Source: a virus. Taken from it: DNA of 64,000 bases. The notes under the pieces are model-generated. The model did no database searches. It was not told the DNA's origin and saw nothing but the letters and a program-made list of their open reading frames with translations. The stretch's first letter is position 1, and each line of letters begins with the position of its first letter. Of the stretch, positions 9,887 to 59,661 are shown in pieces. A program made the translations under genes and the position numbers. The stretch spans positions 43,861 to 107,860 of the IMG/VR virus record IMGVR_UViG_3300017786_000003, one strand, 5' to 3'.

Positions 9887-10162
9887 TTATTTTTTCATTT
9901 TACCTAAAGTTAATGCTAACCTTGCACGTTGTGCAGTCTTACCACTACCTTTAGCTTTTTGTCTCAACCAAGACTTCTTAATAGTTCCATCAGCTTTCAT
10001 TGCTCCTGCTCTTTTAGCAGTTGCTTTTAAGGCTCCTGGCTTTTTAATTGCCCCCTTGATCCAGTTCTTACCAGATTTTTTTGCACCACCTTTTTTATAA
10101 GACACTACACTCTTAGGCATAGTTCCTTTTTTCTTAGCTGGCTTAATTTTTTTTGCTGGCAT
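9887..10162 (-). CDS. Small Lys-rich putative DNA-binding/core protein
   Basis: Very basic; YKKGG linker followed by NWIKGAIKKPGAL...RARLALTL module. Confidence 0.75.
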   Translation of the reverse strand: MPAKKIKPAKKKGTMPKSVVSYKKGGAKKSGKNWIKGAIKKPGALKATAKRAGAMKADGTIKKSWLRQKAKGSGKTAQRARLALTLGKMKK

Positions 10163-11474: not shown

Positions 11475-12317
11475 TTAAGGATATATTCTTATTTCTACTC
11501 CTGTTCTTATTAATTCACTGTCACCAAGACTACCATTTTCCTGGGTGCTTAACTGAAAGCTTGCAGTAGTAGCACCAAATATATTAATCACTACTGTTTG
11601 ATTTTTTAAATTACCTTGTACAGGTGCAAAAAATACTTTATCCATATCAGCTAGAGCTGTGTCCCAAGTACCTCTATACACTCCTGTAGTTATACGTGTC
11701 CAAGTAATATTATTACCTGTTGTATTTTCTAATACTGTTGCAGCTGGTGCACCGGTTCCAGATTGATTTAACAAAGCAGTGTAGCTTGTATACGGCCTTC
11801 CACCTGTGGAATTTATTGTTATTTCATTTGCACTTTGTGACACAGTAACATTTGTACCTTGCACAATACTTCTAAAATTAAGGGTCTCCCCTACTTTATC
11901 TTTAAAAATTTGTGATCCACCACCTACATTTGCTGCAGTATTTGGTTCACCACTTGTTGTTATCTCTACATAATCATCATCTGATGAATTAGCAAGAGTA
12001 AGGTTGCTGCTCAGAGACTTTAGTGATCTAAAATAAACAGTACATGTTTCTTCAACATCATCAGATTCTGTCTTCTGATATACTTGACCTGTGCCAGCAG
12101 CTGGATTAGCTGGAGAATTTGCGTGTGCACAATGTTCTGCAGCAACCTTAAAATCTCTCACCTTTATCACCTTTACACTTTTGTATGGTATAGGAGATGC
12201 TACACCTGTCATATCAGGCTTTTCATTCACCCCTAAAATCAATACATCGTCTAACTCAGCCTTCTTAGCAAAAACAGATCTTCTTATTAAACTTAATACA
12301 TCAGTTAAAATGTTCAT
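11475..12317 (-). CDS. Short fibre/virion appendage protein
   Basis: N-terminus shared with the other two fibres; LNFRSIVQGTNVTV fibre-like motif. Confidence 0.7.
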   Translation of the reverse strand: MNILTDVLSLIRRSVFAKKAELDDVLILGVNEKPDMTGVASPIPYKSVKVIKVRDFKVAAEHCAHANSPANPAAGTGQVYQKTESDDVEETCTVYFRSLKSLSSNLTLANSSDDDYVEITTSGEPNTAANVGGGSQIFKDKVGETLNFRSIVQGTNVTVSQSANEITINSTGGRPYTSYTALLNQSGTGAPAATVLENTTGNNITWTRITTGVYRGTWDTALADMDKVFFAPVQGNLKNQTVVINIFGATTASFQLSTQENGSLGDSELIRTGVEIRIYP

Positions 12318-12619
12318 TTTTTCTTCTTCTTATTCTTTTTCTTATAAGAAGATGTCCATCCCCCTATCTTGTATGGTTGTTTTGATTCAGTACCATCTGC
12401 TCTTTTTGCATTCCTTAAAGCATTGCCTCCCTTTTGCATCTTATTTATTAAAGAGTTAAGAGATACATCTGCTAGGTCTAGTTCACCACCAAGCATTTTA
12501 CCAGATACGTCCATTGATCCTTCTTTAAGCATATCATCTATTGCGGCTGCTTGAGCCCCATGCATTTTAGATGCTTTCTTTAATGCACCAGATATTTCTT
12601 TTAACTTCTTCTTTGCCAT
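12314..12619 (-). CDS. Small basic protein with xxGG linkers
   Basis: MLGG, QKGG, KIGG; Lys-rich ends. Confidence 0.7.
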   Translation of the reverse strand: MAKKKLKEISGALKKASKMHGAQAAAIDDMLKEGSMDVSGKMLGGELDLADVSLNSLINKMQKGGNALRNAKRADGTESKQPYKIGGWTSSYKKKNKKKKK

Positions 12620-42538: not shown

Positions 42539-45500
42539 TTACATTCCCATTTTTCCACTATAAAATGGCATTACCCATTTTTTAATTTTTTTCTCCATAC
42601 CATGTTTACCCTCATCTACTGAGACATTTGATCCAGGATATCCCGGTATACCTCTTGATTGTAACTCTTGCTGTCCATATGTGGTACCTCCAACATTAGG
42701 TAAACCTGAGTGAGTATCCTGATATATTCTATTCTCTATTTCTTTTGTAGGTTGTACACCAGTTATTCTTGTATACTCTGCAATTTTTCTAAAGTATGCT
42801 TGATCAGCATCTTCCTTGTTTTGTTTAAAGAACTGTTTACCTTGGTCAGTAAATTCTATTTTTCCATACTCATCTGGATTTATACCATAATAATCATATA
42901 AACTATTCAAGTTAGCAGTATTAGCTTTATTTGTTTGAGCAGTATTCATTAATTCAACAGCTTTATTTATATAAGCATTATCAAAGTTATCTGCATCTTG
43001 TAGTGCTTTTACCGTACCATCATATGCATTCTGATCAATATCAGCTTGTGCTAAATTAAATTTATAATCTAACTGAGGCTGCATCATTCCTACTTGGTTC
43101 ATTGTTCTAACATTATTCTGATTAACTAAATTAATAGCTTTTGCATTAGCCGCCATTGTTTTACCTTGTATATTACTACGTGCAATCTGTTGCGGTCCAT
43201 AAGTAGACAAAGCCTCAGCCATAGTATTTTGTGCACCTAAGTTTGCATTTATTGCCTGTGTTGGATCATCTAATACATAATCTATAACAGGTCTTTCTAA
43301 TTGTGGAGCATAAGGTAAATATAAATTATCCTCCATCATTCCTAAAGCTCTTAGATTATTTAAATCTTGTTGCCAGAATCTATCAATAGGTGGATCAGCT
43401 TCTTCTATAGGGTTTGGTTCTATTGGATCATCTGGAATATCAAAAAATTGTTCATCATCAGAACCAAAATCTATATCTAATCTTGGTGCATTAAATGTAT
43501 GGAAACCAAATTTACTATCAAAACCTTCTCCTTTTATATAACCTTCACTACCCTTTTCTTTAAAGTAGGGCACATATAACTTATTATATAACTCTTCATT
43601 AAATACTCCATTAGCGTCTGTAGCTAATTTTCTAGCTTCTTCTTGTCTTGTTTTTTCTGCAAGTTTTTGGAACTCACCCCACTGCTTATTATCTCTACCA
43701 GCGTCATAATCAAACCCTTCTATTTGTTCTACTACATCTCCCCATCTTTCCATGAAGTCAGCTTCACCTTCTTCACTCATAAATACACTAGAACCATAAC
43801 TACCTTCACCTGCTTTAAACTGTTTCAATGGTCTTGAACCTTTTGAATATCTGCCGTATCTATACTGACCTATAGGAGAACCTTCAAGTACTTGCCCTTG
43901 TGTCTCTATATCATCTGAGTATATAACAGTTGATCCAGTTCCTTCACCTTCTATTTCTTCTCTTACTCTTTCATGACTTTTATCAAATCTACCTTGATAT
44001 GGTCTGTATGCTCTAAGTCTACCATCAGAAGTTAAACTAAAAGTATATCCTTCTCTTCTATACTTTTCCATTTTATCATAGTTTTCACTACCTTTTGGAA
44101 ATGGATTCTTATAGTTATCTACATTCTCATCAACAGTCTCTTCAACAGTAGATACTACATCTGCTGAGCCTTCAGTATTATCTGATTCTATAATTTCACT
44201 TGTAGAAACAGATAAATCTTCTGGATATGTTGGTTTATTAAATATATCATAATTATCTATATCTGTTAATGCTTTACCATACATTTGTTTTTCTTCATTG
44301 GTTAAGTCATCTAAAAATTTCTTAGGTATTGTACCATCTATACTTCTATGCAAATCTTGTCTAATAACATAATCAATATATTCAGCTCTTCCTACTGGCC
44401 TTCCCTGAATCTCATACATAGAGCTAGTAGTTACTCCAGCACGTGCTCCTGTATTCTCACCACCATCTTGCATCTTTCTAAAATTTGGTAACTCAAAGTT
44501 TTCTGATTGTTCTGGTAACTCACTTAGCTGTAATGATTTAAATAATCTAGTAACAACTGGTTCACTAAATGTAGATTTTTGATCAAAATTTGGTAATTGA
44601 AAATCTACTGATTGACTAGGCAATGAAGATAGATAATTATATTGTGGAGTGTTTGGTACAAAAGGTATTTTATTAGCTCCTGTAATAGCATCTAATTGTG
44701 ATTTTGTAGGCATACCCGGTATTTGTTGTCCAGGAACACCGCCCTGTTGAGCTTTCTTCATAGATTCTTTGATGGCAGCATCTCTTCTTGCTAAATATAC
44801 ATCTTCTCCTTTTGGTCCTCCATATGCTGCTGTTTGCATCATATCCATGTCTGCCTGTGCTAGTTGCATTTGGTCAGCAGGGTTTGGCTGTTGAGGTTGT
44901 ACTGGCATTGCTTCAGCTTGTTGTAACATTGCTTGAAGCATCATAAGTTTTTCTTGTTCTCCTGGAGGCATAGCGTCAATTGTATTTTGTTGTGCTTGTT
45001 GTTGAGATATATTTTCTATTTTTGCTGTAAACTCTAAAGGGTCTACTCCCACACTCAATAAAAAAGGATGTGCTATTAAAGGTACACCTTCTTCAAAATT
45101 CTTTTTATTTTCTTGCATGAATCCTAATTTAGATAAATCCATCATATTTTTCTTTAACATAAGCTCTGCACTTCTTGATGATATGTCATCAGCATATTGA
45201 GAATCTAATTCAGCATAAAAATCATTAATATCAAACTTCTTTGAAATTGCAGCTGGTGTTTTTTTCTTTTTACTTTCAATACCAAACTCTGCCATCTCAT
45301 CTCTATCAAATTTCATCTTTGCTGTATCAGAAAAAATAAATGATTGCTCAGGTAAAAACATAGGTGTTCCCCCTTTAGAGTGTCTTTTACCCCCTATATC
45401 ATATAAACCAAACATACCATCACCTGACAAATCTGTTAGGACTGTTTCTCCACGTTCTGCTTCTACGTTTGCATTTTCTCTAGGTACACTAGATAAACTA

Positions 45501-45700
45501 TATCTAACGTTCTCATCACGTGTATTATTAAAACTAGTTTCTCCATAGTATTCCTGTGGAACTGAAACCAAACCATAATCAGCTTGATCACCAGTAGTAT
45601 ACATATCACCACCAGTACGCATAAATTTGTCTTCTACAACTTTACCGTTTACTAATTTAAATCCTTTAGGTAATTTACCTTTTAGTTTTATTTTTGCCAT
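42539..45700 (-). CDS. Virion cargo protein with xxGG-delimited modules (1053 aa)
   Basis: NVEAERGE..GKRHSKGG..FIFSD domain recalled from crAss-like cargo proteins; RTGG, AYGG, QQGG, QDGG linkers. Confidence 0.75.
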   Translation of the reverse strand: MAKIKLKGKLPKGFKLVNGKVVEDKFMRTGGDMYTTGDQADYGLVSVPQEYYGETSFNNTRDENVRYSLSSVPRENANVEAERGETVLTDLSGDGMFGLYDIGGKRHSKGGTPMFLPEQSFIFSDTAKMKFDRDEMAEFGIESKKKKTPAAISKKFDINDFYAELDSQYADDISSRSAELMLKKNMMDLSKLGFMQENKKNFEEGVPLIAHPFLLSVGVDPLEFTAKIENISQQQAQQNTIDAMPPGEQEKLMMLQAMLQQAEAMPVQPQQPNPADQMQLAQADMDMMQTAAYGGPKGEDVYLARRDAAIKESMKKAQQGGVPGQQIPGMPTKSQLDAITGANKIPFVPNTPQYNYLSSLPSQSVDFQLPNFDQKSTFSEPVVTRLFKSLQLSELPEQSENFELPNFRKMQDGGENTGARAGVTTSSMYEIQGRPVGRAEYIDYVIRQDLHRSIDGTIPKKFLDDLTNEEKQMYGKALTDIDNYDIFNKPTYPEDLSVSTSEIIESDNTEGSADVVSTVEETVDENVDNYKNPFPKGSENYDKMEKYRREGYTFSLTSDGRLRAYRPYQGRFDKSHERVREEIEGEGTGSTVIYSDDIETQGQVLEGSPIGQYRYGRYSKGSRPLKQFKAGEGSYGSSVFMSEEGEADFMERWGDVVEQIEGFDYDAGRDNKQWGEFQKLAEKTRQEEARKLATDANGVFNEELYNKLYVPYFKEKGSEGYIKGEGFDSKFGFHTFNAPRLDIDFGSDDEQFFDIPDDPIEPNPIEEADPPIDRFWQQDLNNLRALGMMEDNLYLPYAPQLERPVIDYVLDDPTQAINANLGAQNTMAEALSTYGPQQIARSNIQGKTMAANAKAINLVNQNNVRTMNQVGMMQPQLDYKFNLAQADIDQNAYDGTVKALQDADNFDNAYINKAVELMNTAQTNKANTANLNSLYDYYGINPDEYGKIEFTDQGKQFFKQNKEDADQAYFRKIAEYTRITGVQPTKEIENRIYQDTHSGLPNVGGTTYGQQELQSRGIPGYPGSNVSVDEGKHGMEKKIKKWVMPFYSGKMGM

Positions 45701-45702
45701 AA

Positions 45703-48700
45703 TTATAACATTTCTATATCAGCTCCCGCTGCAATTAATTTTGCTAATATTGATGAGTCAACATTAACAGTCTCACCACCCTCTTGTCTTCTGGTTCCAG
45801 TTTGTCCTAAATCTAAACCTGAAACAAAGTTTAACGGATATCCTTCAACATCTGAAGATACTGATTGTATTGGTTGTGACTCAATAACAGAAGCTGCAGG
45901 AATGTTGTATTGCTTAAGTAAATTCCTAGCTTCATCTAACTGAGTTTGTATCTTAGGTAGTTGTCCAACATATCTTAAAAATTGTGGATCTTCTCCTCTT
46001 ATTGCATTTGGATCATTTTGATCATATGGCCCATCTACCATTGGAAAATTACCTTCATTAAAATCTAATCTAGTTCCACTATCTGCTTGATATGCGTTAA
46101 ATGTTGGTTGCATCACAGGCATACCATCTTCATCATAAGTACCAGAAGTTGTTTCTTCTCCAGGACCAGAATAAATACCTGTATGATGAGGTCTCCAAGA
46201 TTCTCTATTACTATGCTTTCCTCTATATGTAGTTGGTGCGTAGCTATACATAGATACCATATCACCTAATTCTGCCTCATCATCACTAATTAACTCAAAT
46301 GGTATTGAACCTGCACCAGGAAACTTAGAGCCATAAGCTTTTTCAGTTAAACTATAATTACCACCCAAAGTTGGCATATCATATGCTCCTGCTTGTTGGT
46401 ATGCAAAACAACCATATGGAGTACAATATAATTCATCATCGTTACTACCAGTAGTACCAAGTGTACTATAAGGTGTATCACTACCTGCTCTAGTTTTTGG
46501 TAATGCATCCTTTATCATTTGAGGTAACTTCTCATATGCACTCATCATTTCTTTTCGGCTAGTTGCTAGTTGAAAGTCTCTGTATAATTGGTAATCTTCG
46601 TCAGACATTCCTCCCTCACTTGGACTTAAAAACATCCTATCATCTGCTTGATCCAAAAATTCTGATGTACCTAGTATATTATCTCTTACTTCATTAACTC
46701 TTGTTTCTTCTGTATTATATAAGTTTTTAATGTAATTATAATAAGCACGAGCTGATGCACTATCTTTTACACTTTCACTAGTAAGACTCCCGCCATCTTG
46801 GGCTTTAGCCATTTCTCTTTTTATAACTTTATCTCTATTAGCTAGATAAGCTGCTTCTCCTTTCTCACCACCATATTCAGATACTGAATTCATATATAAA
46901 CCAGTTACATAGTCTGAGTCAGCACCAGTTCTTCCTGTGTTTATATCAGTAGTACCTTTATAATTAAATGGTTGTGTGTATGTATTAAATCTTTCATCTG
47001 CTATTGCACCCATTCTATTATCTACTTGTGCATCAAAAATATCATCTCTTTTAGCAAACTTAGTTAATTCTGGAGCTAACTGAACAGCTACGTCACTTAC
47101 ATCTTCAAAACCTCTCATAAAGTTACTATCCCTAAATCTATTATAAGCTCCTTCTATTCCTCCAGTATTTATATTTATTTCTGGTGGTGTAATTTCATCA
47201 AAAGCAGCTTGAGCTTCAGCTTGAGCCTTTTCTTGCATTCCTTGTTGATTCTGTTCATTTAAAGAATCTAACGTTGCTTGGTTCTGTTGTTGTGCTGGTG
47301 TTGGACCTACTAATGGATTTCTTTGTCTGAATTCTTCATCTTCTACCATTTGCACAGATGTGCTGTAATCTAAAAAAGGTACATTAAAATCAAAGATATC
47401 AGAACTATCTTGTTGTGGAAACATAGCACCTCCATCTTGTTTTTGTGGAAACATTTTTTGTAATGCTTCTAATGTTGCATTACCTACATTACCTAAATTT
47501 TCTTTTTGAGTAGCTGCCCAGTCTTTGAAATCTTTTTGTAAGTTACTAATCATTCTTTCAGTGCCAAGCCCTCCACCTGTAACTGTCTCATTAAAATTAC
47601 CTACATCAATATTAGAAGCAATTTCATTTGCATTTTCTGATGACTTTAGTAAGTCTACATACTTTTGCATTGCAGCCATATTATCTTCAGATAAAAATTC
47701 ATCCATATTCTTTATTGAATACTCTGCATCTTTAAATTTATTAGATCTATTTATATCTTTTTTTGCCTGCCAATCTCTGAATGTTCCATCTTTAACACCA
47801 TCTTTATTTAGATCTTTGCCACTAAACATATCTTCATATCCAGTACGTAGAGTATTAAAAATATTAGCATAGTTGACATCTCCATCTTCAAATGCAACTG
47901 GGTTAATGTAAAATGGCTTAGCATTTATAACATCATAATTATAATTCTTATCAATCTTATACGTTGGGTTTGGGTCTGCAATTGTTCCCATACCACCATA
48001 TTGCATTTGGGGTGCTTGCTCTTTTAATTTTTTTAAACCTGCTCTTCTATATGCATCAAATTTACCAACACCGTTCATATCACGGCTATATGCTCCAGTA
48101 TTAATTGGTACTAAAACATTATCTATTATAGCTTGAACACGTTCTGGATCTTCCAAACCAGTATAAAAATCTGAACCTCTTAAATCTTCTAGGGTCAAAT
48201 TAAGTTGAGTAGTCATATCTATTTCCTCACCACCTTCTTGTTTTTTAAACTTAGCAGCATTACGTGCAAAATTAGCCATTTTTACTACTTCGGTAGAATA
48301 CTTCTCTTTATTAGCTAAAACCTTTCTAGCAGCTTCTTGTACACCCATACCACGTGCCTTAGCCCATTTAGTAAACTTACCTCTATTTTCTTTTTTAATT
48401 TCTATGCCTGATTTAGCATACTCATCTATTACATCTACATTAAGATCAACAGGATCCATTTCACTTTCTACTGATTCATTTCTTGCTAGCTCTTGAGGAT
48501 TTTGATTTACTTGTGCAGGAGTAGCAAGTTCAGGTTGCATTCTTTTAACAACTTCTTGAAAGACCTGTTGTATTTGGACTTCTTCCATACCACCCATCAT
48601 AAGTGCTTGAGCTATAACTTGTTGATCTATTTCTTGTGTAGAAAGTTCTGTTACTACATCAACTATATCTTTTCCTTGTTTAACTGACTCACTAATCATC

Positions 48701-48810
48701 ATAGTAACTTTCTGAATCATAGGATCCGGTTGCTGATTATTTTGCATACCAGGTTGCGTTGGAATCATTTGTCCTCCTTGTTGTTTTAAACTTTTTTTGT
48801 TTAATTGCAT
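45703..48810 (-). CDS. Modular cargo protein with NlpC/P60-like domain and xxGG linkers (1035 aa)
   Basis: Seven (Q/E)xGG linkers; YCTPYG...LGDMV...HHTGIY. Confidence 0.8.
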   Translation of the reverse strand: MQLNKKSLKQQGGQMIPTQPGMQNNQQPDPMIQKVTMMISESVKQGKDIVDVVTELSTQEIDQQVIAQALMMGGMEEVQIQQVFQEVVKRMQPELATPAQVNQNPQELARNESVESEMDPVDLNVDVIDEYAKSGIEIKKENRGKFTKWAKARGMGVQEAARKVLANKEKYSTEVVKMANFARNAAKFKKQEGGEEIDMTTQLNLTLEDLRGSDFYTGLEDPERVQAIIDNVLVPINTGAYSRDMNGVGKFDAYRRAGLKKLKEQAPQMQYGGMGTIADPNPTYKIDKNYNYDVINAKPFYINPVAFEDGDVNYANIFNTLRTGYEDMFSGKDLNKDGVKDGTFRDWQAKKDINRSNKFKDAEYSIKNMDEFLSEDNMAAMQKYVDLLKSSENANEIASNIDVGNFNETVTGGGLGTERMISNLQKDFKDWAATQKENLGNVGNATLEALQKMFPQKQDGGAMFPQQDSSDIFDFNVPFLDYSTSVQMVEDEEFRQRNPLVGPTPAQQQNQATLDSLNEQNQQGMQEKAQAEAQAAFDEITPPEININTGGIEGAYNRFRDSNFMRGFEDVSDVAVQLAPELTKFAKRDDIFDAQVDNRMGAIADERFNTYTQPFNYKGTTDINTGRTGADSDYVTGLYMNSVSEYGGEKGEAAYLANRDKVIKREMAKAQDGGSLTSESVKDSASARAYYNYIKNLYNTEETRVNEVRDNILGTSEFLDQADDRMFLSPSEGGMSDEDYQLYRDFQLATSRKEMMSAYEKLPQMIKDALPKTRAGSDTPYSTLGTTGSNDDELYCTPYGCFAYQQAGAYDMPTLGGNYSLTEKAYGSKFPGAGSIPFELISDDEAELGDMVSMYSYAPTTYRGKHSNRESWRPHHTGIYSGPGEETTSGTYDEDGMPVMQPTFNAYQADSGTRLDFNEGNFPMVDGPYDQNDPNAIRGEDPQFLRYVGQLPKIQTQLDEARNLLKQYNIPAASVIESQPIQSVSSDVEGYPLNFVSGLDLGQTGTRRQEGGETVNVDSSILAKLIAAGADIEML

Positions 48811-48870
48811 GATGATTATATTATAATATTAATATACAAATAATTAGGGAGAATCACTAATCTTTTAGGT

Positions 48871-51648
48871 TTAAGAATTGCCTGCAACATAAGTCATAAT
48901 GTAATTAGCAGGACTCATATTCATAGCTTTAGCATCTCTATAATAAACTCTATTAAGTTTATCATATACTTTTTGACCAATTATTTCTTCTTGTTTTGTT
49001 TTGAAATTACCATTTATATAATGTTTATAAATAGCATGTGGATTACTCATACTTCCACCATCTTGACCTTTAGGTAATGTTTTAATTTTACCGTTCTCAG
49101 TTCTAGCATATCTGTTCTTTTCATTTTCCATGCTAGGAATAAGTGTGCCTGAATAAGTTTTACCTTTCCATTGCCAGCTAACTGATCCACCTTTTTTATA
49201 TTCAGGTCCTTTTACATTTCCATCTTTATCTTTAAAGTATACGTTTTCTGAAAGACCTTCTGTTTCTCCTTGTTTAGTTCTTACATACCCGTCTGGCAAA
49301 AGATTGTTATATGAAAGGTATTTTATAACCTCATCTTTTTTAGAATCATCTATATTTAATGATCCAACAATTGATCCAACATAATTATTAAATGTGTCTT
49401 CTCCCATTTCTAGAAGCTTTGCTAAGAATGGTCTTTCATCTCCGCCAAATATAGTTCTTAACTCATGTCCTACACCTAATAGATTTGAACCTATAAAACC
49501 AGCTGCTTTGTCTACACCAACAGAATCTAATAGTCCACCAACATAAGGTATATCTTTAACTTTTTGTTGTATTGCTTCTGCTGCATATCTACCTCCTGCA
49601 GCATGTCTCATATTATCAATACTATTTTCTTCACCAGGATTCTCAGCAAAAGCTTGAGCTCTATCATTTACATTATCTAAAGATGCATTAATTAATTTTT
49701 CTAGATCAGAAAGAAAACTGGTTTTAGGATTTGACCTCTGAATTGCATTTACATCACCACCTTCTTGAAAACCTAATTTGTCTTTCCAGTAATTTGGTAT
49801 ATTTTTAATACCTTCCATAGAGATGTCTATATTAGGAACATCTATACCTAATTTTTCAATTGCAAATCTATTTGCTTTATCTTTAGCCATATCTAAAAGC
49901 TCAGGTGCCCACTTATCTCTTTCATAAATTACTGTTTTTAATGCAGCTGGTATTGTTCCATCTGGAAGGATATTATATATCTCTTTTGCATCAGAACCTA
50001 CCTGACGTAATCTTTTTGCTGCTTTATCCTGTCTGCGTTCACTGGGCTCATCACCAAAAGGAAGGAAGCCAGATATAACTGTATCAAGATCTTTTAATGT
50101 TTGATCTGTTATGTCACCAATACCCTTATCTTTTATTGCTTCTATTGCTGTAGGATTATGTAATACTGTTTCTACTACATCATTTATTTCATCTCTATCT
50201 AAACCATCTAAATAATTTGTAAGAAGATTAATAGTAGTAGCATTAAGATCTACTTTTGCTTCTTCTTTTACTAATTTTGTTAACCCCTCAAATCTACTTG
50301 TCCTTTTTCCTTTTACACTTCCTGGAACTATTTTATCACTATAATTTTCTAAAATATTATCCATAACAAAATTAGGATCAGTAATACCCCCTCTACTATT
50401 TTCTGGTGAATTAGGATCCATACCTAAAGCCAAACATACCCCAGTAGCACAATTAGAATCTAAAAAGTCATAATTATATATGCTTTCATCCTCCAATGAT
50501 ATAGGAAGTTTTTCTGGTCTCAATCTTACATCATCATGAATAGAACTTCTTTCAGTACCTTCAAATAATTGTGCTTGATTTATAAAACCTTTTATTTCAT
50601 CATCAGATAAATCTAAATCTAAAACTCTTACGTCATCTTTCCCTTTATAATCTCTTTCACTAACACGTTTATTTCCTGAACCAGTTGACCATCTATTTAC
50701 ACGGCCAACTAACTTAGTACCAGGTATTACATTTACTTGATCACCTGTATCAGTATTAATTAGTACAGCTTCAATATGTCCAGGACTAAACTTTTTACTT
50801 CCATAAGGATATTGTATAACTCTTACATTATATTTTGAATAATCTATATCATTAATTCCTTTAGATCTTTCTGGGTCACCACCGTCTTGTAACTGACTTG
50901 CTTTGGAACCTTTGTTTATTGTTTTAGCTGCCAACTTAGCCTGGAGAGGAGTTACACCTTTAATTGCTTTGAGGGGTTTAGCAAAAGGTATTATACTTAA
51001 TGCATTTAGTGCTGCGTTACTATAATCACCACTATCTAAACTATCAGCTGATTTATACGCAGCATTAATTGGATTAAAAAAATCTATTGCACTTGTAAAA
51101 GAATCTTTTTCAACTTGTCCAGCATCTATACCCTTATCAAAATTATATGGTACATTTCCAGTATTAAATTTTTCTTTAATAGTTGCAAAAGGATATCTAA
51201 CAAATGATCTTATGTCACTTTTAAAATTATCAAGCATGCTAGGTGCTTGTGTTATTGTACCTCCTTGTTGAAATTGTTCTGGTTGTTCTAACTCAGGTTG
51301 CATTCTATAGTTAGTAGTAAGTTCTTCTCCTTCTTTTAAATCTTTCAATGCATATACAAATCTTTGATCACCTACCTTTTTACTCATCATAGTTGGTGAT
51401 TCTTCATTATGATTATGCATCTTACCTAACTGAGTAACAGGTTGTCCACCTTTATGTGCTAAACCTATTAGCTCACCCTGTTTAAAAGATCTTCCTGCAA
51501 ACATACCATCTCCTTCTATATCAGAAGGGGCTTGAAATATATCACTCATAGGTGCATTAGAACTAAACACACCAGTTACATAGGTAAACATTTCATTAGG
51601 TCCACCAGGTAATCCTCGTCTTTCTTTCTCTTCAAAATATTCTTTCAT
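48871..51648 (-). CDS. Modular protein: SET domain, permuted papain-like peptidase, DUF6973-like domain and small beta module (925 aa)
   Basis: SDIEGDGMFA..GELI..HNH..ALKDLKEGEELTTNY; PGHI...YDFLDSNC; DNMRHA..GHE..EDTFNNYVG; five (Q/K)xGG linkers. Confidence 0.82.
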   Translation of the reverse strand: MKEYFEEKERRGLPGGPNEMFTYVTGVFSSNAPMSDIFQAPSDIEGDGMFAGRSFKQGELIGLAHKGGQPVTQLGKMHNHNEESPTMMSKKVGDQRFVYALKDLKEGEELTTNYRMQPELEQPEQFQQGGTITQAPSMLDNFKSDIRSFVRYPFATIKEKFNTGNVPYNFDKGIDAGQVEKDSFTSAIDFFNPINAAYKSADSLDSGDYSNAALNALSIIPFAKPLKAIKGVTPLQAKLAAKTINKGSKASQLQDGGDPERSKGINDIDYSKYNVRVIQYPYGSKKFSPGHIEAVLINTDTGDQVNVIPGTKLVGRVNRWSTGSGNKRVSERDYKGKDDVRVLDLDLSDDEIKGFINQAQLFEGTERSSIHDDVRLRPEKLPISLEDESIYNYDFLDSNCATGVCLALGMDPNSPENSRGGITDPNFVMDNILENYSDKIVPGSVKGKRTSRFEGLTKLVKEEAKVDLNATTINLLTNYLDGLDRDEINDVVETVLHNPTAIEAIKDKGIGDITDQTLKDLDTVISGFLPFGDEPSERRQDKAAKRLRQVGSDAKEIYNILPDGTIPAALKTVIYERDKWAPELLDMAKDKANRFAIEKLGIDVPNIDISMEGIKNIPNYWKDKLGFQEGGDVNAIQRSNPKTSFLSDLEKLINASLDNVNDRAQAFAENPGEENSIDNMRHAAGGRYAAEAIQQKVKDIPYVGGLLDSVGVDKAAGFIGSNLLGVGHELRTIFGGDERPFLAKLLEMGEDTFNNYVGSIVGSLNIDDSKKDEVIKYLSYNNLLPDGYVRTKQGETEGLSENVYFKDKDGNVKGPEYKKGGSVSWQWKGKTYSGTLIPSMENEKNRYARTENGKIKTLPKGQDGGSMSNPHAIYKHYINGNFKTKQEEIIGQKVYDKLNRVYYRDAKAMNMSPANYIMTYVAGNS

Positions 51649-54600
51649 TAGCGTTTAGATAATAATAGTTTAGTATTGTTTAATCTTAGTAACATTTTTC
51701 TATCTCCTGATCTATTTTTTCTTAATATTAATTGGTTAGAATAATGTCTAAATTTTTTGCGTTGTGTAGGAGACTTATCATAATTAAGATTAAGTGCATT
51801 TAAAGGTCTAATATAACCATTACACTGTGTATTAAATATAGGTTGTTCAACATTAGTAAATTCACCTCTATCATTTGTTATATCAAAAAATTGATTAAAT
51901 CTAAATTTATGTTCTACTTTAGATGATAGTATGTCTATGCTACTATTATTTATTATTGGATAATTTAATTCACCCCACGGATCATTGTAAGGTTGCATAT
52001 TTAGATTTAATAATCCAGATACTTGATCATTATTATAAACTATAGCATGATCAAAATTAAATTCTAAATCTTCCCACTTATCTTCTCCACAAGCGTTACC
52101 AAGTGTATTATTTTTATAGACGTATGTTTCAAGTTGATATTCAATACTTCTAACTGTATTAACAATTTGACCTGTATTTTCTATTAGATCTATTTCCCAA
52201 GGATAATCTACCTTATAGAAATTCACATATGAATCACACCTTGCATTATGTCTCCATATAGAACCTACTTCAAAGTTAGCATTTTCTTGCTCAAATATTT
52301 GATAGTTACAAACTCTATTACTTGTAAACGTTGGAGTATCTACTTGATAAATTAATGGTGCTGAATCAGGACAATCACCTGTAACAGTAGTAGTATAACC
52401 AGGTTGAGAAGTTGGACAATCACAAAGAACTCGTCTGCATATAGGTGGATTAACAGGATCACATGTACCCGTTGCTTGTGTATAGTCTCCGTTAGCATCT
52501 GGATAAACTATTGTGTATCCTGCAGGACAACTACAAGAAGGGGTAGAAGTACATATTTGGCCAAGAAATTCAGTAGCAATCATATCCCAGTTTGTTATTG
52601 GATATGATGCATCAATTGTAGATTGTATACCAAATTGATATCTATCAGTTGAAATACCAGCCGTACCAGGTGATATAGTTGGTGGTCCTCCTGTACTAGT
52701 AATATTATTTAATACCAATGGTTGAACTGGTACTGGACTATTTACACCACAATAAAGTGCATATACAAATTGATTTGCAGGAGCAGGACCTCCTGGAACT
52801 ATTGTACTAGATTGAAACTGGGTATTTGGTCCCGTTGGTGATGTAGTATCTGTAATTAATAATATAATTTGTGTAAAGTTTCCTTGTCCTGATCTATCTC
52901 CTAATGCAGAAGCTGCTTTATTATTAAGTAGTGCTTGTCCACCTGTTAAACCTCTAGTTATATTAGTACCTGTCCCAACAGTAGTTCCTGGTGGCCAAGC
53001 TCTAGCTGCTAATGTTTGAGCATACCAATTAAGAACATTTGCACGGGCTTGAGGTGTTGTAATATTATTAACCATACTTTGTGTAGAAGCTGCTGGTGAA
53101 CCAGTATTATTCACATCCCAACTTTGTGATAGGTTTGCCCATGCAGTAAATCCTATTTGCATTGTTCCAGCTTGTTGAGCATTTATAACTAAAGGATTTT
53201 GTAAAAACGCCTGTATCCATTGTTGTTGTGCAAATGCTCTAGTTCCTGGGTTATTAGGGTTTTGCCCTAATCCCATAGTACTTGTAGACATGTCTGTAGC
53301 AATAACTATATCTAATAAACATGCTTGTGTTCCACCTGTTAGGGTCATTGTTCCTCCATTGTCTACAGTAATTGTTGCAGGCTCAGTAATTGTATCTGCT
53401 CTTTCACATTTGAAAGATGTTGGATTGTAATTAAATCCTGGAGGACATTGAGGTACATCAGTTGTTAAAGTCTTAGTAGTAAAGAAATGATTTATACTAG
53501 GTAAAGTTAATTCTGGGTGCCAATCATGAAATGATATCCAAGCTTTAGCTTTTGGATCATAACTTACTGTCCAAGAACAATCATCAAAGTAAACTGGATC
53601 TCCAATACTAATATCTATTATTGTTGAACCAGTACCTAGACTACCTAATGCAGCTGTTACATTAAATTTAAATCCTCCTTCTTCAGTATAAGTTACATTG
53701 CTTATATATTCTTTTTTTACTTTATAATCTCTTTTACAGAAGTATACTATATCATTATTAGTATCATACACTGTTTGGCAACCTACACCTGCTATAGGAT
53801 TGTCAGATAATACAGAATGTTCTAACTCTGGAAATTGTCTTATTAATGAAGAAGGTAAGTATTTATTAAACCACCACTTCATACCTTTGTTAGATATAGG
53901 ATCTAAACCTTTACCTGCATATTGGAATATTTTTCCTTGTGCTTGTGATATAAAAAATAATCCCATTGGTGTATTCATTACACCTCTTAAACTTTCAGAT
54001 GAACCATATTCATTAGATAAATCAGAATTAGCAACATTTTGCATTGGTTGAGAAAAAAGACCACCATCACCAATAGTTACCTTTGTATCTAATTGAGTTT
54101 TTAAAACATCAACACCTTGAAACAATTGAGGAGATAAGTATGGGAAAAATACTAGTGCACCATTTTTACTAAAAGGTTTTATTACACTTACTTCACCTTT
54201 GAAATCTTTATAATTAAAGTTTAAGAATACTCTCCAGAAATCTTTTTTAGATTCTTCTTGAGCTCTTAAAGAATATACAAGTCTTTTAGGGTAACTTGTA
54301 AAACATGTTTCAGCAACCAAAGGATCATAATCTAATGGCTGTACTTGACCAAAGCTACCTATTTGAGTAACAAACTTTGATGGACTTAAAGATTCATCAT
54401 ATTTATAGAAGTTGTCTGCTTTTTCTATTCTTGCATGAAATAGCTCATCAAGATCATTGTAATCATATACACTGTATATTCTTCTTGCTGGTGATTCTTC
54501 CCAATCTCTATAATCTAAATTAATTTCTGACTCTACATAAAAATCTAATATACCATTATTGTGAGTATATATATAAGCAAACCTCATAGCTAATGCAGGA

Positions 54601-57600
54601 TTCGGATCATTTGCGTTTCCAAATATTGCACTTAATCCAGTATTACATGAATCATTTCCTCTATCTAAATAATATAGATCATCTGGAAATTTAGCATCTA
54701 ATGCATTTTCACTTTGCAACCCTAATGTTGCAATTTCTCCTGCCAAAGGAGTTAAGTCAAATCTTTGAGAATTCAACCAGTATCTTGGATAAGGAATATT
54801 AACATATAAAGAATAGTCAAATGTATAACCATCAGGTTGTCCTTGTAAGTAATTACTAAATATAGGCATTATTGTTTTTTCAGTATATCTACCTATAAAT
54901 GTATCACCAGAAAAAATTGGTTGGCTTTTATATTTAAATTGATTAGGTTTTGTTGGATCTAATAATTCAACACAACCTCTCATTTGTATTTGTTTAATAC
55001 CAGCCAGCTGTCCGTACTGATTATCCATATTAAACTTTAATGCCCCATAATAAGCTGATATCTGTCTTTTCTTTGATGATCCAGGGTCTAATAAATAGTT
55101 ATCAGAAAATGGTATTGGTTGACTGCTTACATATTCCCCTTGTGCATTTAGATTCATTTCTACTTCACCACCTACTACATATCTAGATTTATCTTTAAAA
55201 TCTGGATCTGATATTGGTTTATCTATAGCTACTGCCACAGTGCTTGGTCTAAATAAATTATTAATTTTATATTCTCCTTTGTTAAATGTTTGAAAAGAAG
55301 AACCTAAATAATTTGAGTCAGTACATTTAATTCTCCATAAACCATTTGTTTGATTTCTGTATGTATCAAAAAATCCAGATGAATTATGTTTCCATGCAAA
55401 ATCTGAATCATTAACCATTGCATATATTAAATCTATAATTTCATTTCCACCTATTGCAACATTTGCTTTAGCAACAGCCATACCTGCAAAAACTCTAACT
55501 ACAAAAGGAAGATTAGAAACACTAGTATCTTTTCTAGTTGAATTACTTTTCATTCCACCAATTACTCCGGGGATACCACCTTCAGCAGACTGTATACCTT
55601 CACTAACGGCTGTTGCAATTTGACTAACTGCTCCCCCACTATAAAAATCTCCAACTGCTATTAAATCATCTATTAAAAATTGTTCAACTATTTGCAATAC
55701 TGTAGAAGCTGCACCAGCTGCACCAGCTACAGGTCCATTAACCAAAAGCCATCCCCCAGGCTGTACACCATAACCAGCACCCGCAGGTCCTCCAAAACCC
55801 CAATTTCCACTTACAGAATCCATAGCAGCCCTTGCTCCTTCAAAACTACTAGTATCAGTACCTCTCACTTGATGAAATGCATAACCTAAACCAATAAGAG
55901 AAGCAATTACTGCACCACCATTTCTTAATAATTTAAATTGTGGATGGTCTTCTGATGGTTTAAAATATCCAAATGCATTACCTGTTAACTGACCATACAT
56001 TCTAGCTTCAAATGCATTTAAAAATGGTTTTGTAAACATAAGTTCAGGAGAAGAAAATGTAAAAACTTTTCTTGAATATCCAGCAGGTTCACCATCTACG
56101 TCTGGTCTATCACCTAATGCTCTATATCCATTTACACCTAATGACTGAGTAAAACTATCACAACCACTAGTTCTATTTAATGGGCCTCCTTGAATACCAT
56201 CATGAAAATATATATCTGGTCTTAAATCATTATATGGATAGTTAGGATATAAACCTTGAACCCCATCTCCTATAAGATCTTGTGCGTTTGGTACAGTGTA
56301 CTTACGCATATTTCTAAATAAACCTTTTGCAAGTATAGATCTTGCACCAAGCCTTGAACCTCTTAAAATTTCATAACCAACTACATTTTCAATAAATGTA
56401 CCGTCATTATTTGTTGGTCTTCCTATATTTTCAAACTCAACTCCTAATATCTGCATAGTATCACCATTGTCTTTAGTGATATGTAATGGACCTGCATTAC
56501 CTATTTCTTCTGTTGGCATCTTATGATGTCTAATTGGTAAGCCACATAAATCTCCCCAAATATCAGGTCTATTACTAGGATATCTTTCTGTTGATTCCCA
56601 ATATCCCATTTTACCTCTTGCGGTAATAACATCACCATTTGCTGATATTTCTTGTAATCCTTGTTGGGTAATAGACCCAGTGTTATATACTTTATATACT
56701 GGATCTCCATTAGGATCTATAACATTTTCTCCAAAAATAATTTCATTTTCTAAAACTGTATTTCCATTATCTAATGTATAATTTTCAGGTGCTCTACCCG
56801 GTATATGATATGAAGAAGATCTTTCACCAGTATTATATATCCAACGTATAAAAAATGCATATTGTTCATCCCTCATAAAACCCATATTATTCCCACCTAA
56901 AGAATAATAAGTTGAATCTTGTTGATTAATTACCCAATTAACTTGTATTTGATTAGCAATAGGTTGATAATTAAAATCAAATTGTTCTGTTGGTCCTTGT
57001 CTAATTAAGTAATCATTAACAACAAACATAGACTCTGATTTTTCATAAGCAGGACTACGTAAAGGTATTTGATCTAAAGCTACAGCAGTTAATGCTGGGT
57101 CAATATAATCTATGTTAATATTAACTTGTTGTGTACTATATAACCCAATTTTTTTAGCAAATGTTTGACCTTGGTTTCTCACTAATAATACTAATTCAAA
57201 GTACTCATAGTCTTCATCTAAATTACTTATTGATATATCTAATGATCCTTGTGAACCTGCATGTGACCAAAGTGTTTGAATATTAGATACTCCAATATAG
57301 TCAGTTACTCTTTGTTCATTTTCTGTATAAGCAACAAATGCTTGATAAGAACCATTTGATAATAATCCTCCGTCAGTATTTTTATTTAGTTTTACGCAAG
57401 GTGTATCTAATAAAGGAGCCAATCTTATTTGTTCACAATCTAATTGTAATGGTAATATGTTTTCATATATTACACATGGATCACCAGGAGCAGAAGTTAT
57501 TTCTTGTTTATATGGTATATCATCTATGTTCATTGCACGTGATGGATTATTACCATCATCCCAATAAACTTCCCATGTACAATCAAAATTTTCTTTTGAT

Positions 57601-58004
57601 GCACCTGTAATAAGAAATTTAGTATTAAAATTTAAACAAGGATCATTTACTAATGTAGTATATTTACATTCACTGTCATCAAATGTACCTATCTCTGAGT
57701 TGTTATTATCAGTAGAATATATAATCCATTCATCTCCGTATCTATGTATAGCACCAATTATTGTATATGGTATAACACCACATTGTAAATTAGCCGGTTC
57801 ATTTCCTAATAGACCTACATCACCATCATTAGAGTTATTAACTGCATTACGTGCATGCCACCAACTCATGTTGTTCTCCATGGAAGGTGCAATGTCCTTG
57901 TTCATACCCTTTACAAAAGAGTTAGAAACTATAGATGAACTGCTTTTAGGTCGTGCACTAGCTGGTCTACCTTTAGATTTAGAAGATGTCTTTTTTTTTG
58001 CCAT
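51648..58004 (-). CDS. Tail stabilisation/muzzle-type protein with inserted vWA domain (2118 aa)
   Basis: FVKGMNKD N-terminus, FMRDEQYAFFI, WTVSY...WISFHDW beta-propeller-like region; position after the ring proteins. Confidence 0.78.
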   Translation of the reverse strand: MAKKKTSSKSKGRPASARPKSSSSIVSNSFVKGMNKDIAPSMENNMSWWHARNAVNNSNDGDVGLLGNEPANLQCGVIPYTIIGAIHRYGDEWIIYSTDNNNSEIGTFDDSECKYTTLVNDPCLNFNTKFLITGASKENFDCTWEVYWDDGNNPSRAMNIDDIPYKQEITSAPGDPCVIYENILPLQLDCEQIRLAPLLDTPCVKLNKNTDGGLLSNGSYQAFVAYTENEQRVTDYIGVSNIQTLWSHAGSQGSLDISISNLDEDYEYFELVLLVRNQGQTFAKKIGLYSTQQVNINIDYIDPALTAVALDQIPLRSPAYEKSESMFVVNDYLIRQGPTEQFDFNYQPIANQIQVNWVINQQDSTYYSLGGNNMGFMRDEQYAFFIRWIYNTGERSSSYHIPGRAPENYTLDNGNTVLENEIIFGENVIDPNGDPVYKVYNTGSITQQGLQEISANGDVITARGKMGYWESTERYPSNRPDIWGDLCGLPIRHHKMPTEEIGNAGPLHITKDNGDTMQILGVEFENIGRPTNNDGTFIENVVGYEILRGSRLGARSILAKGLFRNMRKYTVPNAQDLIGDGVQGLYPNYPYNDLRPDIYFHDGIQGGPLNRTSGCDSFTQSLGVNGYRALGDRPDVDGEPAGYSRKVFTFSSPELMFTKPFLNAFEARMYGQLTGNAFGYFKPSEDHPQFKLLRNGGAVIASLIGLGYAFHQVRGTDTSSFEGARAAMDSVSGNWGFGGPAGAGYGVQPGGWLLVNGPVAGAAGAASTVLQIVEQFLIDDLIAVGDFYSGGAVSQIATAVSEGIQSAEGGIPGVIGGMKSNSTRKDTSVSNLPFVVRVFAGMAVAKANVAIGGNEIIDLIYAMVNDSDFAWKHNSSGFFDTYRNQTNGLWRIKCTDSNYLGSSFQTFNKGEYKINNLFRPSTVAVAIDKPISDPDFKDKSRYVVGGEVEMNLNAQGEYVSSQPIPFSDNYLLDPGSSKKRQISAYYGALKFNMDNQYGQLAGIKQIQMRGCVELLDPTKPNQFKYKSQPIFSGDTFIGRYTEKTIMPIFSNYLQGQPDGYTFDYSLYVNIPYPRYWLNSQRFDLTPLAGEIATLGLQSENALDAKFPDDLYYLDRGNDSCNTGLSAIFGNANDPNPALAMRFAYIYTHNNGILDFYVESEINLDYRDWEESPARRIYSVYDYNDLDELFHARIEKADNFYKYDESLSPSKFVTQIGSFGQVQPLDYDPLVAETCFTSYPKRLVYSLRAQEESKKDFWRVFLNFNYKDFKGEVSVIKPFSKNGALVFFPYLSPQLFQGVDVLKTQLDTKVTIGDGGLFSQPMQNVANSDLSNEYGSSESLRGVMNTPMGLFFISQAQGKIFQYAGKGLDPISNKGMKWWFNKYLPSSLIRQFPELEHSVLSDNPIAGVGCQTVYDTNNDIVYFCKRDYKVKKEYISNVTYTEEGGFKFNVTAALGSLGTGSTIIDISIGDPVYFDDCSWTVSYDPKAKAWISFHDWHPELTLPSINHFFTTKTLTTDVPQCPPGFNYNPTSFKCERADTITEPATITVDNGGTMTLTGGTQACLLDIVIATDMSTSTMGLGQNPNNPGTRAFAQQQWIQAFLQNPLVINAQQAGTMQIGFTAWANLSQSWDVNNTGSPAASTQSMVNNITTPQARANVLNWYAQTLAARAWPPGTTVGTGTNITRGLTGGQALLNNKAASALGDRSGQGNFTQIILLITDTTSPTGPNTQFQSSTIVPGGPAPANQFVYALYCGVNSPVPVQPLVLNNITSTGGPPTISPGTAGISTDRYQFGIQSTIDASYPITNWDMIATEFLGQICTSTPSCSCPAGYTIVYPDANGDYTQATGTCDPVNPPICRRVLCDCPTSQPGYTTTVTGDCPDSAPLIYQVDTPTFTSNRVCNYQIFEQENANFEVGSIWRHNARCDSYVNFYKVDYPWEIDLIENTGQIVNTVRSIEYQLETYVYKNNTLGNACGEDKWEDLEFNFDHAIVYNNDQVSGLLNLNMQPYNDPWGELNYPIINNSSIDILSSKVEHKFRFNQFFDITNDRGEFTNVEQPIFNTQCNGYIRPLNALNLNYDKSPTQRKKFRHYSNQLILRKNRSGDRKMLLRLNNTKLLLSKR

Positions 58005-58021
58005 AATATATTACCCTTTAT

Positions 58022-58990
58022 TTAACAGGTTGCACTGGTTGATGATTGACTTGTTGTAGAGTCATTAGGATTTACAGTAAATTTTTCTGGCAAAGGAGCA
58101 ACTGGATTATTAGGAGCATAGCTCAAGAACATATTATAATAGTTATGATATTGTGCTCTTCTATTTACTTCCCACATTTTTCTCATTTCTGCAAAGTTTG
58201 GTGTATTAACAAATGTTAATGCATTGTTTCTTGCTCCTCTTAGTTTCTGTGATACTAAATTTAATTGCTGAGAAACGTTCTCACCGTTCCATACCATATT
58301 TTCAAGTATTCTTTCTTTAACTGCATATTCATAATATTCATTACAATAAGGATGATCTAATACTAATAAATCTCCATATGCATCTTCCATAGCACCCTGA
58401 TAACTTATATAAACTTTTCCTGTTCTAAATGTTGTAACTAAAAATCCATCTCTAACTTCAGCTATATCTAATGCTTGTGCACCTAATGTAGGACAAAAAC
58501 AAACAGCATCATTTACATCTTGAATTCTTAATTGAGTCCAACTATCAAATTGTCTATATTGATGTGGTCCTACTCTTTGAACTAACTGGTAACTGTTTTT
58601 ATCATCACAAGTTTTAATAACACATACATCTTTACAGGTGTCATCTTTACTGCATGGTGACATTTCTCCAGGAGAAGGAACATAAGGTACTTCATTAAAT
58701 GTTTCAATATGTGTACCAGATGGCATTGTTGCATTAACTGTATAGCTGCCACATCTAAATGCATAATTTATATATTTGAAATCCATAGGTAATTGCCCTC
58801 TACCATGTTCTATATCAATTATGACCTGCTTAGTTCTGTGAATTCTTAAACCTAAATCATAATTAACTCTTTGAGCAACTTTAATTAATTGCTGTGGCTC
58901 AATCATTCCTTCCAATGCATAGGTTGAAAAATCAATGGAAACATCTTCCATTAATTGACTGAATGTTCTATATTTTTGTGATACTCCCAT
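58022..58990 (-). CDS. Putative tail ring/tubular (adaptor) protein
   Basis: LPMDFKYI, VYISYQG..D..G; synteny with crAss-like tail genes. Confidence 0.65.
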   Translation of the reverse strand: MGVSQKYRTFSQLMEDVSIDFSTYALEGMIEPQQLIKVAQRVNYDLGLRIHRTKQVIIDIEHGRGQLPMDFKYINYAFRCGSYTVNATMPSGTHIETFNEVPYVPSPGEMSPCSKDDTCKDVCVIKTCDDKNSYQLVQRVGPHQYRQFDSWTQLRIQDVNDAVCFCPTLGAQALDIAEVRDGFLVTTFRTGKVYISYQGAMEDAYGDLLVLDHPYCNEYYEYAVKERILENMVWNGENVSQQLNLVSQKLRGARNNALTFVNTPNFAEMRKMWEVNRRAQYHNYYNMFLSYAPNNPVAPLPEKFTVNPNDSTTSQSSTSATC

Positions 58991-59661
58991 TATCTATTAA
59001 TATTTATTTTATTATCAGAATCCTCTGGCGGAACTTGCATAGTATTCATCATAGTCTGTATTACTTGAGCTTCTATTTCTGCAAATAATGCTTCAGGTAT
59101 ATATATTTCTTGATCATACCTAGGTATACAGTTATTTGTATCATCACAGTCCCAATTAGTTATATCTGAATCAAATACTCCTTCTAATTTTAAAGCATCC
59201 CATTCAATATTTGGTGCATATATATAACCATCTAACCACCAAAAATATAATGTTTTATTATATTTAAAAGTTGTAGTTTTAGTCATAGAAGTAAAAGTAC
59301 CCGGCTGAGTAGCTTGAAGTTCTTTTGATCCATCTATAGAGCTTACAGTACGTATTAGAGGTCCCCAGTATCCTTCAAACATAGAAGGTAGTTTCTTTTT
59401 AGATCTTTTGATTGTACATCCACTTGTTATACCTGCACAGTGTGCCTCTACTTTATCTACATCAATTAATTCAATATATGGTAATGTTTTCCAAACTGAA
59501 TTAAATTTCATTAGTTTATTGGCATAATCTTGTCTTCTCATTAATACTTGAGCGTACTTCTCTATTAGGCTGTATATATATCTATCAGTTACAAATGCAT
59601 CTTGTACTTCTGCTTTTACTTGACCTCTGATTCTAGATATTGCTTCTGATATTTTTGACAT
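58990..59661 (-). CDS. Putative tail ring/tubular protein
   Basis: RSKKKLP, YFWWLDGYIY, EGVF; synteny. Confidence 0.65.
   Translation of the reverse strand: MSKISEAISRIRGQVKAEVQDAFVTDRYIYSLIEKYAQVLMRRQDYANKLMKFNSVWKTLPYIELIDVDKVEAHCAGITSGCTIKRSKKKLPSMFEGYWGPLIRTVSSIDGSKELQATQPGTFTSMTKTTTFKYNKTLYFWWLDGYIYAPNIEWDALKLEGVFDSDITNWDCDDTNNCIPRYDQEIYIPEALFAEIEAQVIQTMMNTMQVPPEDSDNKININR

Follow-up and report, generated by a model that had tools for sequence, protein, structure and literature searches.

To our knowledge, eukaryotic viruses (vSET) and intracellular bacteria (RomA) use protein-lysine methylation by SET domains as a weapon, and bacteriophages are not known to do so. The chlorovirus PBCV-1 "encodes and packages" vSET (A612L; PDB 1N3J, 3KMA), an enzyme that is implicated in the shut-off of host transcription and has been called "the smallest histone methyl-transferase" in a review (PMC7019647). 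It is a free-standing protein of 119 amino acids without pre-SET and post-SET Zn clusters that methylates histone H3K27. Legionella RomA/LegAS4, according to a passage in a preprint (bioRxiv 10.64898/2026.05.29.728679), are SET enzymes delivered by injection into another cell, whose proteins they methylate; they are type IV effectors with a full-size SET and target eukaryotic H3K14. Polyvalent proteins, described by Iyer, Burroughs, Anand, de Souza and Aravind in 2017, are mosaics of unrelated effector and peptidase or lytic domains encoded next to packaging or virion genes, and have been proposed to enter the host with the DNA and to be cleaved into effectors (PMC5512222). In PhicrAss001, gp45 (842 amino acids) was identified as cargo protein C1 by mass spectrometry and cryo-electron microscopy, and its N-terminal part waits in the tail barrel (PMC10172136). 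Here we describe an open reading frame (ORF) of 925 amino acids, almost certainly headed by an intact minimal SET module, in a 64,000-nucleotide stretch of viral DNA (the window). The window is the 3' 64 kb (positions 43,861 to 107,860) of the IMG/VR virus record IMGVR_UViG_3300017786_000003, which is 107,860 bp long and estimated to be 94% complete. The ORF and its parts, in window coordinates, are as follows.

48871-51648, minus strand: the whole ORF, a mosaic polyvalent-type protein of 925 amino acids in the cargo C1 position, directly 3' of the muzzle gene
51544-51648, minus strand: N-terminal leader, residues 1-35, with GLPGGPNEMF, kept in relatives without SET
51271-51543, minus strand: minimal SET-domain lysine methyltransferase module, residues 36-126 (~91 amino acids), from Pfam, profile, AlphaFold2 and Foldseek/VIA-align
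51505-51513, minus strand: SET motif I, GDG (GxG, S-adenosylmethionine (SAM) pocket), residues 46-48
51394-51417, minus strand: SET motif III, HNHNEESP (NHSxxPN type), residues 78-85
51307-51330, minus strand: SET motif IV, GEELTTNY, residues 107-114, with the catalytic Tyr114
51271-51306, minus strand: conserved acidic C-terminal tail RMQPELEQPEQF, residues 115-126, in the cargo-linked subfamily only
51259-51273, minus strand: FQQGG di-glycine boundary motif, residues 126-130, at the end of the SET module
50248-50856, minus strand: predicted permuted papain-like module (His before Asn-Cys), residues 265-467, from AlphaFold2 and structural matches

Residues 1-136 matched the Pfam SET family (PF00856) at 29.5 bits (E 1.1e-6), above the curated gathering cut-off of 22.4 bits, and the whole 925-residue protein matched at 23.6 bits. 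When the same Pfam profile was searched against the 107.9-kb genome, the score was 29.9 bits and the 925-residue ORF held the genome's sole SET. A family profile built from 25 family members matched MLL1 (E 8.4e-10), EZH2 (1.7e-7) and PBCV-1 vSET (1.9e-7) among the PDB sequences. The matches form two blocks, N-SET (S-x-I-x-G-x-G-x-F) and C-SET (NHSxxPN ... GEE[LI]TxxY), in which the GDG motif aligns with the GxG block of MLL1 and vSET, motif III with NHSCEPN of MLL1, and motif IV with GEELTYDY of MLL1. The AlphaFold2 model, which rests on the same alignment, has a predicted local distance difference test score (pLDDT) of 88-96 across residues 40-120. With this predicted model, the top 50 Foldseek matches in the PDB were all SET domains, with vSET ranking first (E 2.9e-6), and VIA-align gave Z scores between 11 and 13 (EZH2, 12.8; MLL1 and vSET, both 11.8) at a root-mean-square deviation of 1.5-1.6 Å over 77-82 residues (for vSET, 1.6 Å over 79 residues with 25% identity). 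The close superposition, which runs up to residues 115-118, suggests that the predicted module has the same pseudoknot topology as known SETs. The match at residues 36-126 is far beyond chance, and we have hardly any doubt that these residues form a real, intact SET module.

The original prediction, made from the letters alone, had claimed SET motifs I, III and IV in a module of ~80 amino acids at 51301-51543 closed by FQQGG. All three motifs are present and intact on the minus strand, the plus strand of this span being packed with stops, and Pfam, profile and fold agree with the assignment. The span itself corresponds to residues 36-116; the true module is ~91 amino acids long and FQQGG lies just outside the span.

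Conservation was measured on 154 aligned SET modules, the rest of the carrier proteins being not alignable. G48, H65, G75, E109, T111 and Y114 are invariant; H78, N79, H80 and P85 are each 97% conserved, and G46 is found in 83%. The family consensus of motif III is HNHSE-x-NP[TN] and the conserved pattern of motif IV is G107-E-E109-[IL]-T111-x-[ND]-Y114, while H65, Q69-P70 and R96 are invariants particular to this SET family.

The architecture is strongly reduced. The SET-I insert between the N-SET and C-SET blocks has ~14 residues, compared with 47 in MLL1, and VIA-align matched model residues 34-114 to residues 3-105 of vSET and 3828-3945 of MLL1. With SET-I nearly deleted, the core is ~24 residues shorter than that of vSET and ~36 residues shorter than that of MLL1 or EZH2. 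The short SET-I marks a reduced SET variant that is still a member of the family. Where the post-SET region would stand, the cargo-linked subfamily has the nearly invariant acidic tail R-x-Q-P-E-L-E-Q-P-E-D-F (residues 115-126), which may act as a post-SET substitute. The phage module resembles vSET as a minimal viral SET without Zn clusters, and differs from it in being still shorter, in being fused into a 925-residue mosaic, in its acidic QPELEQPE-x-F tail followed by GG, and in that vSET belongs to a eukaryotic virus whereas the phage's host has no histones. Likewise, the phage module would be aimed, if at all, at a bacterium, unlike RomA/LegAS4. A second comparison is provided by stand-alone mini-SETs of marine phages, which are also poor in SET-I, share 29-42% identity and keep all catalytic motifs:

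Pelagibacter phage Kolga, gp27
Cyanophage P-RSM6, CPXG_00131 (next to baseplate genes)
P-SSM7
Pseudoalteromonas phage PH1

These proteins differ from the module described here in being free proteins of 99-102 amino acids, annotated "hypothetical protein", unfused and without the acidic tail or GG.

The reduction raises the question of whether the fold is catalytically dead and is retained in the cargo protein for structure, docking or lysine binding. The missing SET-I region and the absence of any post-SET Zn cluster would fit such a role, and some eukaryotic SETs, such as MLL5, have no intrinsic activity according to PMC5094779. On the other hand, the invariant and nearly invariant positions coincide with the SAM-pocket and catalytic residues (GxG, NH motif, Tyr), and the fact that these residues are the ones held invariant across at least 154 diverse modules argues against a dead fold. 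Furthermore, vSET has activity although its architecture is reduced in a similar way (PMC7019647), and the stand-alone versions of 99-132 amino acids have no partner domain to dock. We consider a dead fold very improbable. Judging from the conserved residues and the predicted model, the SET module is probably active as a protein-lysine methyltransferase.

We then consider where such an enzyme would be carried. The genes upstream of the 925-residue ORF are those of a crAss-like tail:

51648-58004, minus strand: muzzle-protein homologue of 2118 amino acids, with collinear BLASTP matches to PhicrAss001 gp44 (E 1e-4 and 0.002) and a PHROG annotation as virion structural protein
58022-59661, minus strand: the two tail ring proteins of crassviruses, each scoring above the cut-off in Pfam (CrAss_Ring_1, CrAss_Ring_2)

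The order of transcription is CrAss_Ring_2, CrAss_Ring_1, muzzle and the 925-residue SET gene, and the phage is crAss-like. The ATG of the SET gene overlaps the stop codon of the muzzle gene (TAATG), a sign that the two are co-translated in one operon. We had also considered the 2118-residue ORF as a virion RNA polymerase; this was rejected because the ORF is collinear with the muzzle protein gp44. The arrangement mirrors the order gp43-gp44-gp45 in PhicrAss001, in which gp45 directly follows the muzzle gene gp44. The 925-residue protein is similar to gp45 in its slot and size (925 and 842 amino acids), and gp45 has several x-x-G-G motifs as well; unlike the 925-residue protein, gp45 has no SET and has a predicted transmembrane helix. 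Thus, the SET domain heads a protein that lies, by synteny, in the crassvirus cargo slot, as the original prediction of an N-terminal place in a putative cargo protein had it. The protein also resembles polyvalent proteins in having several unrelated, varying domains and a place among virion genes.

If the 925-residue protein were instead left unpackaged, it could be a late cytoplasmic or lysis-associated multi-enzyme whose SET acts inside the infected cell only. Packaging is read from gene position only, the protein has no similarity to gp45, and stand-alone SETs of ~100-132 amino acids occur in the related genome G003, Kolga gp27 and P-RSM6 CPXG_00131. However, the gene sits inside the tail/cargo operon with its start overlapping the muzzle stop codon, and in PhicrAss001 this slot is taken by a protein that mass spectrometry has proven to be cargo. 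Relatives, moreover, pair the module with ART-PolyVal and cell-wall hydrolases, which are typical of ejected proteins (PMC5512222), and conserved N- and C-terminal segments surround changing inner modules, as expected of packaging or docking signals. We regard an unpackaged multi-enzyme as quite improbable, and consider it likely that the 925-residue protein is virion cargo, although a Pfam and PHROG search of the protein found no cargo-family match.

Downstream of the 925-residue ORF are ORFs of 1035, 1053, 1119, 4565 and 1906 amino acids. The 4565-residue ORF (25403-39100, minus strand) and the 1906-residue ORF (19671-25391, minus strand) had no Pfam match at E up to 1e-3; these are presumably the RNA polymerase-associated giant proteins of crassviruses.

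The SET family is large. A HMMER search of 1.84 billion cluster representatives (50% identity) found at least 536 proteins at E<=1e-3 and 233 at E<=1e-10. The module is mostly at residues 7-100 of proteins of 500-3300 amino acids, and is sometimes internal or duplicated. All named family matches are annotated "hypothetical protein", and many carry a precomputed PF00856 match. In IMG/VR, 97 loci encode the family, and ~36 of them show the order ring2-ring1-muzzle-SET gene, a ratio that is not a frequency for post-muzzle slots generally, as retrieval based on the muzzle gave six loci only. Other arrangements also occur. In L043, from another crassvirus lineage, the SET gene is directly before the muzzle gene (Crass_capsid and crAss_MUZ matches), and in L010 (8027-12382, plus strand) the SET is internal (from ~residue 659) in the second post-muzzle gene, the first post-muzzle gene having no SET. 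A third group consists of proteins of ~650-750 amino acids, weakly DHH-like at the N-terminus and ending in a SET of this family, whose genes adjoin a glutamine-synthetase-like gene:

L060, 8375-10621, plus strand: DHH-like + SET protein
L064, 8696-10663, plus strand: DHH-like + SET protein
L062, 7475-9553, plus strand: DHH-like + SET protein

The contigs of this group have no similarity to crassvirus ring or muzzle genes, and one, of 229 kb, is flagged provirus. A Crass_capsid search on them gave no match, but the controls matched nothing either. Still another architecture joins a Pol-beta-like region to SET.

Among 185,579 prokaryote species genomes, the sole match was one 4.4-kb contig (L088, JBIKJV010000264.1) of a "Phycisphaerales" metagenome-assembled genome. 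This contig has part of a muzzle gene and, after it, a cargo gene that begins with SET, and is probably a crAss-like phage contig mis-binned into that genome. In practice, the SET family is restricted to viruses. Megablast and tblastn searches with the 925-residue ORF and its N-terminal 136 residues found no match in 50,697 GenBank phage records; more consensus-like family members, used as queries, did reach isolated phages.

Within the crassvirus relatives the SET is an exchangeable part. Relatives found with the whole ORF keep the N-terminal leader (GLPGGPNE[MF]) and the C-terminal tail; the SET is replaced in them by a different module of ~60 amino acids, and the modules behind it differ too, such as an SLT transglycosylase in the L002 protein. 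Three loci (L021, L022 and L026) have both N-terminal modules in tandem. The distribution among related genomes is as follows.

G000, G004, G005, G012, G013, G014: a single SET per genome, within the cargo gene
G003 (complete): cargo gene without SET; a stand-alone SET of 132 amino acids in the replication module, directly after a DNA-polymerase-like ORF of 663 amino acids
L097, 4718-5116, minus strand (G003:C1:44217-44615): the stand-alone SET of G003
G001, G002, PhicrAss001: no SET in the genome

Two complete relatives (G001 and G002) are therefore without any SET. Because the SET is present, absent or stand-alone among close relatives, it is an accessory enzyme and not part of a fixed virion chromatin system. 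The SET could work as a free cytoplasmic protein, and was recruited to the cargo gene in one lineage.

This bears directly on the substrate. The original prediction had proposed a chromatin-like pairing of the SET with Lys-rich core proteins of the phage. Lys-rich ORFs of 91 (28.6% Lys, isoelectric point 11.8), 137, 101 and 82 amino acids do exist at ~9.9-12.6 kb in the window (9887-10162, 10168-10581 and 12314-12619 among them), but nothing marks them as core or DNA-packing proteins, and with the SET optional in close relatives a fixed chromatin-like system is unlikely; the pairing found no support. The C-terminal half of the 91-residue ORF (9887-10162, minus strand) matches phrog_20603, of unknown function (E 9e-8), which also matches residues 142-184 of the 1035-residue cargo ORF (45703-48810, minus strand); one small basic module therefore occurs both in a separate ORF and within a cargo protein. 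A holin (phrog_3427, E 1e-17; 10594-11061, minus strand) is flanked by two of the Lys-rich ORFs. An ORF of 135 amino acids with a hydrophobic stretch (11064-11471) adjoins this holin. The Lys/Arg-rich ORF of 137 amino acids was searched in five related genomes and had no match, which is uninformative as the query is low-complexity.

SAM is found only in the cytoplasm, so the SET would act either once it has been ejected into the next host or, ahead of packaging, in the producing cell. In the latter case its substrates would be the phage's own proteins (cargo, ring, muzzle, portal or the Lys-rich ORFs), modified before or during packaging. Virions assemble in the same compartment that holds SAM, the tether to a structural or cargo protein would keep the SET near virion components, and the small Lys-rich ORFs share K-x-G-G motifs with the cargo modules. 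In addition, the acidic tail beside the active site would suit basic substrates, and one family member has an HC2-like Lys-rich stretch, below the Pfam cut-off. Nevertheless, the SET is missing, or present as a stand-alone copy, in complete close relatives whose virion genes are the same, which makes an essential role in maturation unlikely; the Lys-rich ORFs have no core-protein annotation, one sharing its PHROG with a cargo segment and two flanking the holin; and members of this SET family occur in fusions with non-structural enzymes as well. We consider methylation of the phage's own proteins unlikely.

Action in the next host after ejection, which the original prediction had also raised and which we favor, draws in part on the partner domains of the module. 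Partner domains in other family members include:

P0007, P0042: ART-PolyVal + SET
P0008: LysM + SLT + SET
P0183: Amidase_2 + SET
P0197: phage lysozyme + PG_binding + SET

An ADP-ribosyltransferase (ART) needs nicotinamide adenine dinucleotide (NAD), and hence is a cytoplasm-acting effector. ART-PolyVal is a hallmark of polyvalent proteins, and the mixture of cytoplasmic effectors with cell-wall-lytic domains is their signature.

The 925-residue protein has a predicted partner module of its own at residues 265-467. The predicted model of this region has a pLDDT of 75.6, and a conserved His ... Asn-Cys pair (GH...SNC) is found in 5-6 homologues. Its best structural matches are YiiX (Z 7.6), MARTX RID (Z 7.6), TseH (Z 7.5) and 3kw0 (Z 6.6), with further matches to Aichivirus 2A, CLN5, PLAAT4 and the DUF862 deSUMOylase; the best matches all belong to permuted papain-like/NlpC-P60 enzymes, but Z scores under 8 are only moderate. 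TseH was the top Foldseek match (E 0.019), and the Atlas lead was also TseH, plus IcsB_M. A phmmer search of the module against the PDB sequences gave no match. The model suggests a candidate cell-wall hydrolase, acyltransferase or processing protease. There is evidence neither for nor against a dedicated GG-specific protease (DeSI/PPPDE type); the deSUMOylase fold was matched at Z 3.0 only, below YiiX, RID and TseH.

Di-glycine motifs punctuate the cargo ORFs. The Q-x-G-G motif (mostly Q[QDE]GG) is distributed as follows.

42539-51648, minus strand: 4 in the 925-residue ORF, 6 in the 1035-residue ORF, 2 in the 1053-residue ORF
4565-, 1906- and 1218-residue ORFs: none

Across the family, GG follows F126 at a distance of at most 8 residues in 109 of 147 modules (background 5.8%), and precedes 55 of 64 internal modules by no more than 35 residues (background 27%), the usual boundary form being [FM]-[KQR]-[KQDE]-G-G. 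The SET module thus reads as a GG-bracketed cassette. The GG motif may serve for cleavage, as a flexible linker or as a joint for recombination; if it is cleaved, a free SET module of ~13-15 kDa would be released.

From these observations we infer the packaging, ejection, release, activity and target of the SET protein. The 925-residue protein would be packed in the virion and ejected ahead of or with the DNA. The SET would then reach the host cytoplasm still within the chain, or after release at the di-glycine motifs on either side of it, and there would use host SAM to methylate one or more lysines of a host protein, in immediate-early takeover or counter-defence. Such a mechanism would have parallels in vSET, which PBCV-1 carries in its virion, and in the ADP-ribosyltransferases that polyvalent proteins inject. 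Ejection directed at the host is favored by the cargo slot, the extreme N-terminal place of the SET, the ART-PolyVal and lytic partners, the virus-only distribution and the vSET precedent. Given a real SET module, that it is host-directed after injection could nonetheless go either way in our judgment, and we hold the chain as a whole, an active SET in an injected cargo protein that would methylate a host protein, to be about evenly balanced between right and wrong.

Several observations weigh against this chain. The presence of the 925-residue protein in the virion is deduced from the position of its gene, and BLASTP of the protein against gp45 found no similarity (best E 2.2), so that the ORF is filed solely as a positional analogue of C1; a search for transmembrane helices in the protein also found none. 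If the N-terminus is the first part to leave the tail, it would enter the periplasm, where there is no SAM. The papain-like module, like the lytic domains found in relatives, points to a role at the cell envelope for much of the chain, and the stand-alone copy in a replication module, together with the DHH-like and Pol-beta-like fusions, indicates that the SET is useful unpackaged. The SET-I region helps substrate binding in canonical SET enzymes, and with SET-I nearly absent, activity of the module cannot be assumed. Finally, the sole candidate fold for a protease acting on the GG motifs is a generic permuted NlpC/P60, and no such protease was identified.

SET itself is not a new family, and many of the members are already picked up by Pfam. 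A literature search found nothing linking SET domains to crassviruses or phage virions; the searchable literature on phage SETs consists of annotation lines only, such as "SET domain protein (ORF62)" of a Stenotrophomonas phage. A "SET domain" match in the crassvirus atlas was set aside, as it refers to "C2-set" immunoglobulin domains. A whole-word search of PMC5512222 found no SET or protein-lysine methyltransferase domain among the polyvalent proteins, and di-glycine punctuation is not described there. What is new is the SET-I-less architecture with its acidic tail, the use of SET as a swappable, GG-bounded first module of crassvirus cargo/polyvalent proteins, and the idea of an injected lysine methyltransferase. 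More tentatively, and with the balance somewhat against it, this could be the first virion-carried, injected phage lysine methyltransferase, freed from a di-glycine-punctuated polyprotein and hitting a nucleoid, transcription, translation or defence protein of the host at DNA entry, and with a core of ~90 residues and no SET-I the smallest functional SET known.

The crAss-like phages are a very abundant and poorly understood phage order. If the SET is injected and active, it would represent a new chemistry for phage takeover or counter-defence beside ADP-ribosylation, and would provide a handle on the role of crassvirus cargo proteins. It would also set a lower size limit for a working SET, which would be useful for enzymology and protein engineering. 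If the SET modifies virion proteins instead, it would represent a new kind of virion maturation.

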